A stretch of 64,000 bases of DNA from a virus: positions 1 to 64,000 of IMG/VR virus record IMGVR_UViG_3300045007_000107; one strand, written 5' to 3'. The notes beneath the pieces were generated by a model, which had not been told where the DNA came from, ran no database searches, and saw nothing but the letters and a program-made list of their open reading frames with translations. Positions within the stretch are counted from its first letter, which is position 1, and each line of letters opens with the position of its first letter. This document shows, piece by piece, positions 2,785 to 24,401 of the stretch. Made by a program: the position numbers and the translations under genes.

Positions 2785-5586
2785 ATGCCCCTGCGTCAGT
2801 TCAAGAAGCCAAGCTCTAGCCTTGCATCCGTCTGCAAGCTGCCGTGGATGGGCAACGAGCGCGGGTCGATCATGGTCGTGGTCGATCCCGTTATCGTGGC
2901 CGAAGAGGATCAGATCGAGCGCGTTCGCAAGCCCCTGAATTCCCACTTCCTCGACACCCTGGCTCCCCACATGCGAGAGGCGGGCATCAAGGGGCAGGAC
3001 TGCGTCTTCATCTCCGCTTGCCGTCCCATGACGAAGGACACCTTCGACCGCGACAGCAAGCTCGGCAACATCATCAAGGAAGACCACGACCTGTTTCTCT
3101 CGGCGTGGTCCGCCGTCAAGCCGAAGCTGATCATCACCCTCGGCAAGGCCGCAGCGCGACAGGTTATGAACCGCGCGGTCAAGGTCACGAAGGTTCGGGG
3201 CGTTGCATTCGACAGCCCGGCCCTCGGGTGCCCTGTCATGCCGTGCCTCGGTCTCGCTCACATCCTGCGAGTGCCTGAGCACATCGAGACGTTCGCCGCT
3301 GACATCAAGGAAGCCGGCCGTATCGTTCGTGACAAGTTCACGATCAAGGAAATCGAAACGGTCAAGGACTACCGGTGGACGACCGACCTGTCCGAACTTA
3401 TCGAGACGGTGAAGCAGTATCGTCGCGAGGGCAAGCGGCTGGTGCTCGGGCTCGACACCGAGTCCTCTAGTTTCGGCGCGTCTGAGTTCCCGCACTGGTA
3501 CGTCACCGAGACCAAGGTGCTGACGGTGCAGCTTACGCCGCGCGAGGGCTTGAGCTACGTCGTCCCGCTCAACTATCCCGGCTATCCCGTCTCGGACGTG
3601 ACGCGCCGAAAACTGATCTTTCAGCTTAAGGAAATACTAGAGGACCCCATCGTCGGGTGCGTGGGCCAGAACATCAAGCATGACTGGCTACAGTGCAAGG
3701 TAAAGCTCGGCATCAAGTTCCACATCGAGGATGACACCATCATGCTCGTTCACATGCTGAACGAGAACATGATCAGCAAAACGCTGGAAGACATCTCTCG
3801 TATCTACATTCCTCAAATGGCAGGGTACAAAGATGCGTTCGAACGAAAAGGCTACGACAAGTCGCGCATGGACCTTGTTCCTGCTGACGACATTCTTGCT
3901 TATTCCGGCGCTGATAGTGACGTTGTTCTGCGTCTTCGCGATATTCTCCTTCCTAAACTTAAGGCCGACGCCAAGCTTTGGAATTGCTATAGCCGGGTTG
4001 TGTTGCCTGCAATACGCGCTTTTTGCAACGTGGAACAGGAAGGTTTTCGGATTAACCGAAAAGCGCTTGGAGAGCTATATCAGAAGGTCGCGGCGCATCA
4101 GGCCGAGCAATACAAGAAACTGATCGACGCGATCCCGCAGACGATTAAGGATCAGTTCAAGGATACCGGTGTTGGCGTGAAGCCGACCCGTAAGGCGCTA
4201 CAGATCGCATGGCTGTTCGAGCATCCAGACGGTATGCGTCTCAAGCCTCGCACGTTCACCAAGACGGGCGAGATCTCCGCATCCAGTAAGCTGCACTTCC
4301 CGTACTTCGTGAACGCTCAGCCAATCGTCAAGACGCTGATCGATTACGTCAAGAACCAGAAGATGCTCGAAACCTTCATCGGGAAGGACGGACACTATGA
4401 CAGCGAAACCGGCCAGTGGATTGCGCCTACAGGTTTCTGGAAGTACATTTTTAACGAGTATGTCCGGCCTTCTTACCTCCTACATGGCACTGTCACGGGA
4501 CGTTCAAGCTCTCGTGATCCAAACGGACAGAACTTTCCAAAACGAGGCACATTCGCGAAGGCTTATCGAGCAGTTTTCGAAGCGCCACCAGGGTACCTCC
4601 TTGTTGAGGCAGACTATTCACAGCTTGAGCTTCGGATCGCAGGAATACTGTCTAAGGAACCCACATTCCTTAGTATCTACGCGTCAGGGGGCGACATTCA
4701 CTGTGCCACTGCGGCAGTGGTTATGGGAATTAGCCTCGAAGCCTTCATGCGACTCAAGGTCGATGACCCTGAGCAATTTGCACTCATGCGTTATCGGGCC
4801 AAGGCTGTAAACTTCGGCTTCATCTACGGCATGGGTTGGCGGAAGTTCATCGTGTACGCCAAGACGGAGTACGACATCGATTACAGCGAGGCAGAGGGCA
4901 AGCGTATCCGTGCGGCGTTCTTCGGCAAGTACAGCGCCATCGAAAGCTGGCACATCAAGGTCAAGGAATTCGTAAGGAAGCACCGCTATGTTCGCGCTAC
5001 TGATGGCCGCATCCGCCACCTGCCTGCTGTCGTGGTGGATGACGACGGAGTTGCATCATCTGCTGAACGTCAGGCGATTAACTCACCCGTCCAGGGCTTC
5101 GGATCAGACCTCGGCCTTGTTGCTATCGCTCTACTCAATGAACGCATTGACCGCTCTAAAATGCGCATCATTGGTTTCGTCCACGACGCTATCATCTGCA
5201 TAGCCAAGATCGGGTATGAGATGGAAGCGGCGCGGCTGATCAAGAAAACGATGGAAACCCTACCCCTCAAGGAATGGTTCGGTTTCGAGCCGCCCATCCC
5301 GTTCAAGTCGGAGGTTGCTATCGGTCACAATCTGGCAAAGACCATCGAACTCAACGACAACTGGATCGAGGACAAGCGGGTGCATAGCTTTGAGCAGATC
5401 AAGGCGCTCGACGCAGCCGGTGCGGCCAAGGGTAAACTCAGGAAGTCGCCAGACAAGCGTCACTTGCAGATAGCTGCAAGCGCGGCGCAGCGAAAGGCGG
5501 ATCGTATGCTGGCGATACCCCCGAAGCACACCCCCGCTCGCCTGCCCCTTCGCAAGGTCACGCTCGGCGCACGGAGGGCCGCATAA
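2785..5586 (+). CDS. polA: family A DNA polymerase with N-terminal UDG-like domain and 3'-5' exonuclease
   Basis: ExoI LDTES, ExoII QNIKHD, ExoIII YSGAD; TVTGRSSS, motif A DYSQLELR, motif B RAKAVNFGFIYG, motif C VHDA; N-term KPKLIITLG..A / TKVRG UDG fold. Confidence 0.97.
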   Translation: MPLRQFKKPSSSLASVCKLPWMGNERGSIMVVVDPVIVAEEDQIERVRKPLNSHFLDTLAPHMREAGIKGQDCVFISACRPMTKDTFDRDSKLGNIIKEDHDLFLSAWSAVKPKLIITLGKAAARQVMNRAVKVTKVRGVAFDSPALGCPVMPCLGLAHILRVPEHIETFAADIKEAGRIVRDKFTIKEIETVKDYRWTTDLSELIETVKQYRREGKRLVLGLDTESSSFGASEFPHWYVTETKVLTVQLTPREGLSYVVPLNYPGYPVSDVTRRKLIFQLKEILEDPIVGCVGQNIKHDWLQCKVKLGIKFHIEDDTIMLVHMLNENMISKTLEDISRIYIPQMAGYKDAFERKGYDKSRMDLVPADDILAYSGADSDVVLRLRDILLPKLKADAKLWNCYSRVVLPAIRAFCNVEQEGFRINRKALGELYQKVAAHQAEQYKKLIDAIPQTIKDQFKDTGVGVKPTRKALQIAWLFEHPDGMRLKPRTFTKTGEISASSKLHFPYFVNAQPIVKTLIDYVKNQKMLETFIGKDGHYDSETGQWIAPTGFWKYIFNEYVRPSYLLHGTVTGRSSSRDPNGQNFPKRGTFAKAYRAVFEAPPGYLLVEADYSQLELRIAGILSKEPTFLSIYASGGDIHCATAAVVMGISLEAFMRLKVDDPEQFALMRYRAKAVNFGFIYGMGWRKFIVYAKTEYDIDYSEAEGKRIRAAFFGKYSAIESWHIKVKEFVRKHRYVRATDGRIRHLPAVVVDDDGVASSAERQAINSPVQGFGSDLGLVAIALLNERIDRSKMRIIGFVHDAIICIAKIGYEMEAARLIKKTMETLPLKEWFGFEPPIPFKSEVAIGHNLAKTIELNDNWIEDKRVHSFEQIKALDAAGAAKGKLRKSPDKRHLQIAASAAQRKADRMLAIPPKHTPARLPLRKVTLGARRAA

Positions 5587-20887: not shown

Positions 20888-21298
20888 ATGCCGATAACAT
20901 CAAGGTTCAACGGCAATGGCGTAGCGGACGTGCGGGGCCGCTACCTCTTGCCGGGACCGATCTATGGGTTATTCGACAAGGCGCCGCCCATAGGTAACGT
21001 GTACACGCGTCGCGATTGGCGGCTAGAGTACGCCCGGTCCTACTACCGGCGCCAGGAGCTAGACGATCTTTGGTATTGGGTGCTCCCCGCCTTTACCAAC
21101 TACTACAGTGACCCACGAACGCGCGTTATCGTGATCGGCCACATTCTGCTCTGTGGCCTATCGGAGGAAACCCCCCTGGAAGTGGCGCGCTCGCGCCGTC
21201 TCTTCTCAGCCTCCCCCGAAGAACGCGTTAACCGTTACCACGAACTCCACAGGGTCATGTCCCGATGCCCGTCAGGCTCATCCGCCGTATCGGCGTAA
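20888..21298 (+). CDS. hypothetical protein
   Basis: RBS GAGGA. Confidence 0.65.
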   Translation: MPITSRFNGNGVADVRGRYLLPGPIYGLFDKAPPIGNVYTRRDWRLEYARSYYRRQELDDLWYWVLPAFTNYYSDPRTRVIVIGHILLCGLSEETPLEVARSRRLFSASPEERVNRYHELHRVMSRCPSGSSAVSA

Positions 21299-21888: not shown

Positions 21889-22120
21889 AAGGCGAATAGT
21901 AAATGGAAAACTGGCGCTTACAGTTGGAATAGTAAATGGATTAGGCCCTGGGTAGGTGGGGTAAGAGCCTCGCGTAGACCCTGTACGTGTACAACTGGAA
22001 TGGGTGTTCTGTTCCGGTGTATGGGAGTCCTTGGAGTAAGACTGACGTAATCAGCTTGTGCCGTAGCAGGGTTTACGATTTACTCGATAACGGGCCGTGC
22101 GGGCCTAGCGGAGCTTTGCA

Positions 22121-22378: not shown

Positions 22379-22442
22379 GACTAAGGGGCGGGCCAGTAAC
22401 CCGCCCTTCTTCTTGCAGACGGCTGCACGCGGGGTTACGATA

Positions 22443-22691
22443 ATGGCAGCAGACCATAGCACGCACACGGTGCTGTTCGAAGACGGCGGTAAGATCGTAT
22501 TCATTCCGCGCGGTAAGTACGTTCACATGGAAGTGACGGACAAGACCGGCAAAACCATCCTCGTACGTGCAAGTGAGAAAGAGGCGCGCAGATGCGTAAC
22601 CCCGATCAAAAAGACAGCGTTCGCGGTGGAAACGAACAAGCACCGATTGGCAAGGGAGTCAATCTCGCCAATCTCCGACCGATCGAGTTAG
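22443..22691 (+). CDS. hypothetical protein
   Basis: 3' part of ORF 21987..22691. Confidence 0.55.
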   Translation: MAADHSTHTVLFEDGGKIVFIPRGKYVHMEVTDKTGKTILVRASEKEARRCVTPIKKTAFAVETNKHRLARESISPISDRSS

Positions 22692-23179
22692 GGGTCGCGG
22701 TCAACCTCTGCCTGTTCACGATGAAGGACCTCCCCACCTTCACGCAGAGCGAGGGCGGCAAAAAGATCCAGGGACTTTACGCGGGTCTCGCGCGCGAACT
22801 GTTGCAAGGCTATACCAACCCGGCCTCAGCCCGCCTTGTGCGTGACCGGATCGCGACGGAGTGCAAGCATCTGCTCACCCTCGTCTCGCCCGAGGAGTAC
22901 AACCCCACCCAGCGGTTCAACATCACCGCCAAGTTCTTCGATGATGCGGCCAAGGCCCTCGGCTGGCACGACAGCTTCTCGCGGTCTGTGCGCGCGGTGC
23001 TATTGGTTAATCGCACCTTTACGCAGGAGCAAAAATCGGTCTTGCAACTTGCAGGGTCGCCCAATATAAACGACCTAGCCATCGACGCGGGCGCGGTAAC
23101 GCTCATGGTTGGGGCCAAGGCACGCGGGTTGTTTTCGTCGGTTGACAAGCTCCCCGTTTTGTCTCAGGCTTCTCGTTAG
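22592..23179 (+). CDS. hypothetical protein (start uncertain)
   Basis: ORF with phage-like codon bias. Confidence 0.65.
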   Translation: MRNPDQKDSVRGGNEQAPIGKGVNLANLRPIELGVAVNLCLFTMKDLPTFTQSEGGKKIQGLYAGLARELLQGYTNPASARLVRDRIATECKHLLTLVSPEEYNPTQRFNITAKFFDDAAKALGWHDSFSRSVRAVLLVNRTFTQEQKSVLQLAGSPNINDLAIDAGAVTLMVGAKARGLFSSVDKLPVLSQASR

Positions 23180-23737
23180 GAATTCGGTTTGCGGTGGCTG
23201 GTTTGCTCCGATTACCAGTCATCGCCGCCGGGGGTAGCGAAGGTGGGGACCGCACTCCCTTCCCGTCGCCAAGACCCCCGGCGCAACTATCCCTAGGTTG
23301 GTCGGAGCCTAGGGTGACCCGGCCGGCATCCCGCCGGTCAACGCGAGGGTAGTCGTCAATGAACATTCTGCGGAATGTTAATCCACCGTTCTTCTGACGA
23401 TCAGGGCCTATGCGGCGGCCCCTAGGGGTTGCCTAGATACTGGATAGGAAGAGGCGACAGTCGTTAGACGACGGCCCATCTCATAGCTAGAGAGGCGCAC
23501 TAGCCCGCCTACCGGGAACGGCACGAGGCATTGACGGTGATACAACCCGAGCCTATGACTGCCCCCGACAATAGGATAGCTTCTGGCCCGGAGGAAGTTA
23601 CGTCTGTATGTGCTGAACCTTAGCAGAGTTATCCTTTGCGGTTCGTCGTTGAGCGGTTCGGCTAACACCCTGCGGAGAGTGGGCTCCGGCAAGACTGTAA
23701 CTTCCTCCCCCGCCGGCCTCTAGGCCGGTTTTATTTT
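23180..23737 (+). ncRNA. candidate large structured non-coding RNA (~550 nt)
   Basis: No + strand ORF; TTGACA-N17-CAGGCT at 23142; many G-U-containing stems, c(UGCG)g tetraloop, 12-bp long-range helix; terminator at 3' end. Confidence 0.75.
23713..23737 (+). terminator. intrinsic terminator
   Basis: CCGGCC-TCTA-GGCCGG-TTTTATTTT. Confidence 0.85.
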
Positions 23738-23740
23738 GCC

Positions 23741-23768
23741 TTGCATTACAAAGAAACTCGTATATAAT
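23741..23768 (+). promoter_or_regulatory. sigma70-type promoter with the palindromic site over its predicted start
   Basis: TTGCAT-N16-TATAAT; TGCAGCCGTCTGCA at 23776. Confidence 0.7.
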
Positions 23769-23802
23769 ACCCTCTTGCAGCCGTCTGCACGGGGTACCTC
23801 TA

Positions 23803-23874
23803 ATGAAGAATTTTGTCGCCTTTGTCTTCTGGTCTATGATCGCGGTTACTGCGGTAATACTGGTGTTCTCATGA
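23803..23874 (+). CDS. 23-aa membrane peptide
   Basis: MKNFVAFVFWSMIAVTAVILVFS; ATGA overlap with next gene. Confidence 0.5.
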   Translation: MKNFVAFVFWSMIAVTAVILVFS

Positions 23875-24401
23875 GACGACTGATACGCACACCCGGCCAG
23901 CGCCTCCCGCCTGACAAGCGGGCGGAACGCAAGGCAAGCATCCTAGGAGATCGCCCCACCGAACCCCCGCAGTACATGGCGGATGTTCGGTGGGGCGAAG
24001 CCGTTGCGGAGGTCGGTCAGGTCAACACCGGCTGCATGTCCAACGGCCTGCATTATGTAGTGCTCAACGATGCGTTGCTTCGCAAGTTCCACCTGTCGAA
24101 GCCCTCGCAGTGCCAACTCATGCTGATGGTACAAGGCGCCGGTCTACACGCCTGCGAGAACACGCAAGAGATGGTTCACCGGTTCACGGTGTTCAACGAC
24201 AGTCGGCACCACCAGCGCGACGGCTACCTCTGGTACCCCGACATGATCGACATGCCGGCGGCCATCGGCGGCGAGATAGGCAGTCGCTATACCGCCGTCG
24301 CATCCGTAAGGTATGAACGATGCTCGTTCACTCCATGGGGCGAGCGGGTATATTTCCAGCCACGCCACGGCGTCATCTATCTAGGGTATGCCTACCGATG
24401 A
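23871..24401 (+). CDS. RRIG-tag-like protein
   Basis: MRRLIRTPG start. Confidence 0.7.
   Translation: MRRLIRTPGQRLPPDKRAERKASILGDRPTEPPQYMADVRWGEAVAEVGQVNTGCMSNGLHYVVLNDALLRKFHLSKPSQCQLMLMVQGAGLHACENTQEMVHRFTVFNDSRHHQRDGYLWYPDMIDMPAAIGGEIGSRYTAVASVRYERCSFTPWGERVYFQPRHGVIYLGYAYR

Follow-up and report, generated by a model that had tools for sequence, protein, structure and literature searches.

A 558-nt stretch in the genome of an uncultured phage (positions 23180–23737), which holds no gene on the plus strand, is tentatively read as the untranslated 3′ tail of the transcription unit of the gene immediately upstream, P0001, carrying two autonomous stable RNA modules. The stretch is non-coding, contains two folded modules and a terminator, has no convincing promoter of its own and matches no known RNA family. 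Structure is confined to two independently folding modules, one of ~160 nt after the P0001 stop codon and one of ~120 nt before the terminator, with ~245 nt of ordinary sequence between them. An earlier sequence-only reading had described one integrated RNA of ~550 nt; the present analysis is mainly corrective, in that the "large ornate RNA" is unsupported and the structure signal is local. The features discussed below are as follows.

22592–23179, plus strand: gene P0001, 195 aa, an all-helical orphan with a positive codon signal; TAG stop at 23177–23179
23142–23170, plus strand: promoter candidate of the sequence-only reading, TTGACA-N17-CAGGCT, inside the 3′ end of P0001; −10 matches at 2/6 positions
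23186–23345, plus strand: 5′ module, four consecutive hairpins (A–D); z −4.65 on the plus and −2.15 on the minus strand; genome rank 3/5079
23346–23589, plus strand: middle spacer, 245 nt; z −1.1 on the plus and −0.2 on the minus strand; 29/200 shuffles fold as well
23590–23711, plus strand: 3′ module, a multi-branch domain with a perfect 12-bp closing helix and a 4-bp helix; z −4.75 on the plus and −2.67 on the minus strand; genome rank 136/5079
23712–23737, plus strand: intrinsic terminator, 7-bp G+C-rich stem, 4-nt loop and TTTTATTTT; p 0.93
23741–23768, plus strand: promoter of the next unit, TTGCAT-N16-TATAAT, strong; marks the end of the unit that holds the non-coding stretch

Genome setting and the non-coding stretch

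The DNA analysed (the window) covers the first 64 kb of a linear IMG/VR virus record of 101.7 kb that is estimated to be 79% complete. The window starts with a replication module (DnaB-like helicase, family A DNA polymerase, primase, second helicase and UvsX-like recombinase), and a crude codon-based gene call places 124 of 130 genes on the plus strand. Hosts of the GenBank phages closest by DNA polymerase, at only ~39% identity, are Agrobacterium, Rhodobacter and Rhizobium; closer polymerases (54–60% identity) occur in the protein collection, one of them from an unclassified Bradyrhizobium. Because the nearest polymerases come from these phages and from an unclassified Bradyrhizobium, the host is probably an alphaproteobacterium of the Bradyrhizobium kind. 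The 60%-identical relative of the polymerase (window 2785–5586), found on a contig of 296 kb, carries the annotation unclassified Bradyrhizobium and points to the likely host clade.

A DNA-polymerase alignment identifies two records as the closest relatives: G001, of 94 kb and 95% complete, and G002, a provirus of 101 kb that is 93% complete. Their polymerases are 58–60% identical to that of this phage. Gene order is common to the phage, G001 and G002 (L072–L075) from the helicase to the ORF at 20888–21298 and breaks after ~21300; from there to at least 40000 all similarity to G001 and G002 is lost and the DNA is lineage-specific and accessory. Since synteny ends at ~21300, the stretch 23180–23737, downstream of the conserved replication module, sits in a hypervariable accessory region. 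The TGCAG-N4-CTGCA palindrome of this phage is also found in G001 and G002 (8–11 copies per 20 kb), and neither relative has GTGCG leader-type hairpins. Close to the edge of its record, the provirus G002 has an Rfam match to the suhB/mmgR sRNA (L074:2426–2527; 46.9 bits against a threshold of 41), which fits a Rhizobiales-type host.

P0001 has a single homologue even by exhaustive HMMER searching: P0002, encoded on a 1.6-kb Logan contig, which is 49% identical over its full length. P0002 is co-linear with P0001 and confirms both its start and its stop. P0001 has no Pfam or PHROG match, its AlphaFold model is of low confidence (pLDDT 41) and finds no useful neighbour in the Atlas, and the gene is missing from G001 and G002. 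Searches of viral and metagenome collections for related loci with P0001, with the protein downstream of the stretch, with the DNA polymerase alone or with alignment A1 returned nothing, and the sole matches of the downstream protein belong to its own cluster of near-identical sequences. Upstream, an ATG ORF at 22443–22691 overlaps the first 100 nt of P0001 in the −1 frame and has a codon score of +0.25 over 22443–22591. In its frame the sequence ATC AAA AAG (C_AAA_AAG, 22607–22613) resembles a dnaX-type −1 slippery site, and the ORF could be an overlapping small gene or part of a programmed frameshift fusion to P0001.

The absence of coding capacity claimed by the sequence-only reading stands. 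No plus-strand ORF of at least 60 aa is present in 23180–23735, the longest such gap in the whole record. Each plus-strand frame contains 8–10 stops of all three kinds, and so no reassignment or recoding of a stop codon opens a frame. Scored by a codon log-likelihood derived from the long ORFs of the phage, all six frames come out negative (best −0.31, around percentiles 1–5 of the genome's windows), compared with +0.05 to +0.15 and a GC3 of 0.73–0.76 for the flanking genes; GC3 periodicity is absent from the stretch. Translation of the minus strand could have explained the region, and it holds two ORFs of 87 and 94 aa. Their codon scores are negative, they have no Pfam match, and they are not called as proteins in a collection of 15 billion proteins that does hold P0001 from the same contigs. 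A tblastx comparison of the stretch with the remainder of this genome and with related loci totalling 1.4 Mb returned nothing. A protein-coding gene on either strand is thus rejected: there is no open frame with the codon bias of the genome, and these searches find no homologues.

Transcription signals and local RNA folding

The non-coding stretch starts one base past the TAG stop of P0001, and for this reason co-transcription with P0001 as a 3′UTR would be the simplest reading. The stop (23177–23179) and the terminator (23712–23737) lie on the same strand, and the next promoter begins at 23741, an arrangement that places the stretch where a 3′UTR is expected. The terminator proposed earlier is borne out: a hairpin at 23712–23729 with 7 bp, six of them G–C, is followed by the T-run TTTTATTTT, the G+C-rich hairpin and U-run of an intrinsic (Rho-independent) terminator. 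The promoter proposed earlier fares worse. TTGACA-N17-CAGGCT is present, with a perfect −35 and a spacing of 17 nt, but its −10 matches only at A2 and T6. The site is missed by a consensus scan and is unlike the phage's own promoters (TTGCA(G/T)-N16/17-TAnnnT, at 22413, 23741, 29648 and 39172), and neither the consensus scan nor the phage's own pattern yields a convincing promoter belonging to the stretch. With a perfect TTGACA lying 37 nt before the stop of P0001, a weak internal promoter is possible. Two small elements lie 3′ of the promoter at 23741: the palindrome TTGCAGCCGTCTGCA (23774–23790), one of the phage's 16-bp palindromes, and a 23-codon hydrophobic ORF, MKNFVAFVFWSMIAVTAVILVFS (23803–23874), whose stop overlaps the ATG of the next gene as ATGA.

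Taken whole, the stretch folds well, with a minimum free energy of −247.5 kcal/mol and z-scores against dinucleotide shuffles of −4.20 on the plus and −2.23 on the minus strand. When free energy is regressed on G+C over 363 plus-strand windows of 560 nt, it is the most extreme (−2.4 SD; the next is −2.08). The region had been called densely structured, and this holds for two modules of ~160 and ~120 nt, to which the signal is confined, but not for the middle (23346–23589), which is ordinary by shuffling (z −1.1) and average among genome-calibrated windows. Module z-scores are based on 200 dinucleotide shuffles and the genome calibration on 5079 windows of 140 nt. Both modules are more stable than all 200 shuffles; other windows of the genome, several of them coding, fold nearly as well.

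The 5′ module consists of hairpin A (12 bp, 11-nt loop), hairpin B (58 nt; nested stems on a base of 10 bp), hairpin C (9 bp) and hairpin D (7 bp). Pair probabilities for A, B and C are 0.96–0.99, and the block has no U-tract and begins 7–12 nt past the P0001 stop codon. The 11-nt loop region of hairpin A (23203–23213) contains GCUCCGA, complementary to UCGGAGC (23302–23308), a segment covering both the loop and the 3′ arm in hairpin C; a loop–loop contact is possible, and such matches are expected by chance ~0.05 times. The middle spacer has local hairpins at 23362–23379 (with a UGCG tetraloop) and 23414–23433, and its fold is otherwise ill-defined, most helices having low pair probability. 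The closing helix of the 3′ module is the inverted repeat I1, which is 100% complementary (p 1.0) and pairs an SD-like arm, GGAGGAAG, with an anti-SD-like arm, CUUCCUCC.

Most of the helices listed by the sequence-only reading are recovered: 23191–202/23214–225 (12 bp, p 0.99), 23226–235/23274–283 (10 bp, p 0.98, with nested stems), 23291–299/23306–314 (p 0.99), the AACATTC-TGCG-GAATGTT hairpin (p 0.94) and the perfect 12-bp helix 23590–601/23697–708 (p 1.0). Two others, 23353–358/23395–400 and 23404–408/23417–421, compete with better alternatives. The argument that G–U pairs favor the plus strand is suggestive at best: shuffle z-scores do differ between the strands (−4.2 plus, −2.2 minus), but the calibrated asymmetry is not significant, since the plus–minus asymmetry of the 5′ module is −0.9 on the genome scale and the 5–95% range of the genome runs from −1.5 to +1.6. 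UGCG had been said to recur in the loops. TGCGG does occur five times, a count within the top 0.2% of windows, but a single copy lies in a hairpin loop, and the scaffold or decoy idea built on such loops comes down to that single loop. Of the seven C-GTGCG-G leader-type hairpins in the phage, none lies in the stretch. The leader hairpin GGGCC-GTGCG-GGCCT at 22092 has upstream of it an intergenic direct repeat, GAATAGTAAATGGA, present twice in 21895–21945.

Relatives and alternative explanations

The stretch appears to be an orphan, as no relative is found in the collections searched, from which near-identical records were excluded. Rfam 15 gives no match at gathering threshold in the whole 64-kb window, and at E ≤10 the region 23000–23900 shows only two noise matches of 12–13 bits against thresholds of 50 and 70. 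No family is matched, including GOLLD, ROOL, OLE, HEARO, 6S, riboswitches and ribozymes, and ARAGORN finds no tRNA or tmRNA in the window; the earlier statement that RNase P, tmRNA, tRNA and intron signatures are absent thus agrees with both searches. Searches by sequence have the same outcome, with nothing found by blastn in 50,697 phage records and 72,556 plasmids or by nhmmer in 1.4 Mb of related loci. G001 and G002 have no sequence match to the stretch, and neither P0001 nor the RNA stretch occurs in any of the 62 viral and 7 genomic loci of DNA-polymerase alignment A2. Covariance models made from the two modules (R1 and R2) have no match in the relatives G001, G002, G003 and G005 or in 67 further loci (1.25 Mb). 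A DNA search of 401 genomes of the Bradyrhizobium retamae family gives chance 20-mers only, and R1 finds nothing in 151 of these genomes. The short host matches, clustered at 23311–23349, were considered as an attB core or an antisense target and rejected, lying as they do in unrelated coding genes in sense orientation. A 19-mer of the hairpin A loop has no viral match and one metagenome match without flanking similarity (chance), a helix-arm pattern scan has no match, and a palindrome-based scan for clade members gives single chance matches only. A MITE or REP-type repeat is also rejected, the stretch being single-copy in the record and absent from the 401 host-family genomes.

No set of homologues could therefore be assembled, whether from phages and plasmids, from IMG/VR and metagenome contigs, or from G001, G002 and the 401 Bradyrhizobium-family genomes. 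Homologues with compensatory changes, the mark of a conserved structured ncRNA family, are absent from the collections searched. Since both nearest relatives lack P0001 and the RNA, there is no sign of selection maintaining the stretch. An ORF-poor region of G001 (L072:2974–4460, minus strand; 1.5 kb) was considered as an analogue and rejected: it is A+T-rich, laden with repeats and not unusually folded. Its short direct repeats comprise GTTG/GAAG runs, GGTAAATGTRCG and GTTGCGGGTTCCTGCAA (twice), it folds no better than shuffles, and it resembles an origin or control region of the iteron type.

In the 3′-tail reading, RNA polymerase would read through from P0001 into the stretch. The 5′ hairpin block has no U-tract and lies 7–12 nt after the stop codon, which gives it the geometry of 3′-end barriers or of RNase III-type sites such as the intergenic sites of T7. 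By this analogy, the block may shield the P0001 message, either as a 3′-end barrier or as a processing site of RNase III or RNase E type. The 3′ module and the terminator would form a stable end piece, and the modules may persist as stable processed fragments, as ncRNA1 and ncRNA2 of phage PAK_P3 do.

The main competitor, which we consider somewhat unlikely, is a non-functional spacer: what decay has left of one or more former accessory genes, or DNA at the join of two cassettes acquired by horizontal transfer. Old terminator-type hairpins would have been kept, and good folding would be a by-product of 59% G+C and leftover palindromes. The position just after the end of synteny with the nearest relatives, the absence of the stretch from those relatives and of a family from every collection searched, a middle of 245 nt that is indistinguishable from shuffles and the coding windows that fold almost as well are all consistent with such a spacer. 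The modules themselves are harder to accommodate, however: the 5′ module ranks 3/5079 in the genome, both modules beat all 200 shuffles, and, by our estimate, chance would give ~0.01 perfect long-range helices of 12 bp in 558 nt. Nor does any residual protein similarity or frame signal point to a lost gene, and such phage genomes are otherwise tightly packed.

Another reading, which we regard as doubtful, has one or both modules released from the P0001 transcript as lineage-specific trans-acting RNAs of no described family. Possible roles would be a ribonucleoprotein partner of P0001 or a decoy for a host RNA-binding factor or defense system; if true, the cassette would be a new phage RNA–protein accessory cassette.

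The proposal of the sequence-only reading, an independent structured ncRNA of ~550 nt transcribed from its own promoter at 23142–23170 and serving as a new GOLLD- or ROOL-like ornate RNA in a scaffold or decoy role, is judged improbable. Its perfect −35, the 17-nt spacing, a −10 that keeps A2 and T6, the whole-region z of −4.2 and the enrichment of TGCGG speak for it, and an RNA without an Rfam match would indeed be new. A separate promoter-to-terminator unit is nevertheless hard to reconcile with a poor −10 at a site that fails both promoter screens and with a stretch that abuts the P0001 stop codon. GOLLD and ROOL are found in the neighborhood of tRNA genes in phages or prophages; here no tRNAs are nearby, no model matches, and there is neither a family nor covariation. 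The structure is confined to two modules, a single UGCG lies in a loop, and the stretch has no leader-type GTGCG hairpin.

A translation-coupled attenuator or small gene in the 3′ module is very unlikely. A 37-codon ORF with a GTG start (23610–23723) follows an SD-like GGAGGA locked in the 12-bp helix and has its stop in the terminator loop, so that translation would melt the terminator and cause read-through. This geometry is visible in the sequence, and the frame of the ORF is the best of the three plus-strand frames (−0.16 vs −0.77 and −0.38). Its codon score is still negative, however, the start is GTG at a spacing of ~15 nt from the SD, no homologue is known, and the strong promoter directly downstream makes control by read-through unnecessary. 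Equally improbable is a DNA-level element (replication origin, attP, packaging site or protein-binding palindromes): inverted repeats are strand-symmetric, the calibrated strand asymmetry is not significant and the stretch lies just after the replication module, but it is not A+T-rich (G+C 0.54–0.63), shows no skew shift and no iterons (only weak two-copy repeats), contains none of the phage's 62 TGCAG-N4-CTGCA palindromes and shares no core with a host genome (short host matches being scattered coding 20-mers), and the record encodes no tyrosine integrase, so that both an origin, with its iterons and A+T-rich stretch, and attP are rejected.

Comparison with known systems

In phage T7, RNase III processing hairpins between genes leave protective 3′ hairpins on the upstream mRNAs. 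The 5′ module resembles them in its long irregular hairpins placed right after a stop codon and lacking a U-tract, hairpin B having ~21 bp in 58 nt with internal loops. It differs in that four hairpins stand in a row and are followed by ~400 nt of further untranslated RNA, and cleavage here is only predicted by analogy.

With GOLLD, ROOL, OLE and HEARO the stretch shares a phage location, a length of several hundred nucleotides, the lack of ORFs and multiple helices (PMC12286853; Rfam models). Unlike them, it has no Rfam match even at E ≤10, no tRNA neighborhood, no family of homologues and no continuous structure signal. As a singleton it is therefore not to be ranked with the conserved large RNAs; the evidence for it does not compare with that for GOLLD or ROOL, and it is probably a 3′UTR rather than a stand-alone gene. 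In the icaR mRNA of Staphylococcus aureus, the 3′UTR pairs with the 5′UTR through an anti-SD motif (PMC3868564). As a putative long 3′UTR of bacterial type, the stretch likewise has a C-rich anti-SD-like motif, CUUCCUCCCCC at 23701–23711. In the phage, however, this motif is paired in cis with the SD-like GGAGGAAG 95 nt upstream, and its complementarity to the P0001 ribosome-binding site amounts to only ~4 bp (by eye).

The closest known kind, by analogy, would be the processed ncRNAs that virulent phages derive from 3′UTRs, such as ncRNA1 and ncRNA2 of PAK_P3. In Pseudomonas phages studied by long-read transcriptomics most 3′UTRs are shorter than 100 nt, and PAK_P3 ncRNA1 (~210 nt) and ncRNA2 (~120 nt) are abundant, have no transcription start site and are processed from a 3′UTR (PMC10914365). 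A relation in sequence is not expected, and the putative 558-nt tail here far exceeds most phage 3′UTRs (<100 nt; PMC10914365). The likeness lies in the arrangement: structured pieces of 100–200 nt between a stop codon and the terminator of the unit, with no promoter of their own (here by promoter scans) and of similar size (~160 and ~120 nt for the modules here). If the modules are stable processed RNAs, an alphaproteobacterial-type phage would join the few cases in which long phage 3′UTRs yield ncRNAs, and such RNAs would be tied to an orphan accessory gene.
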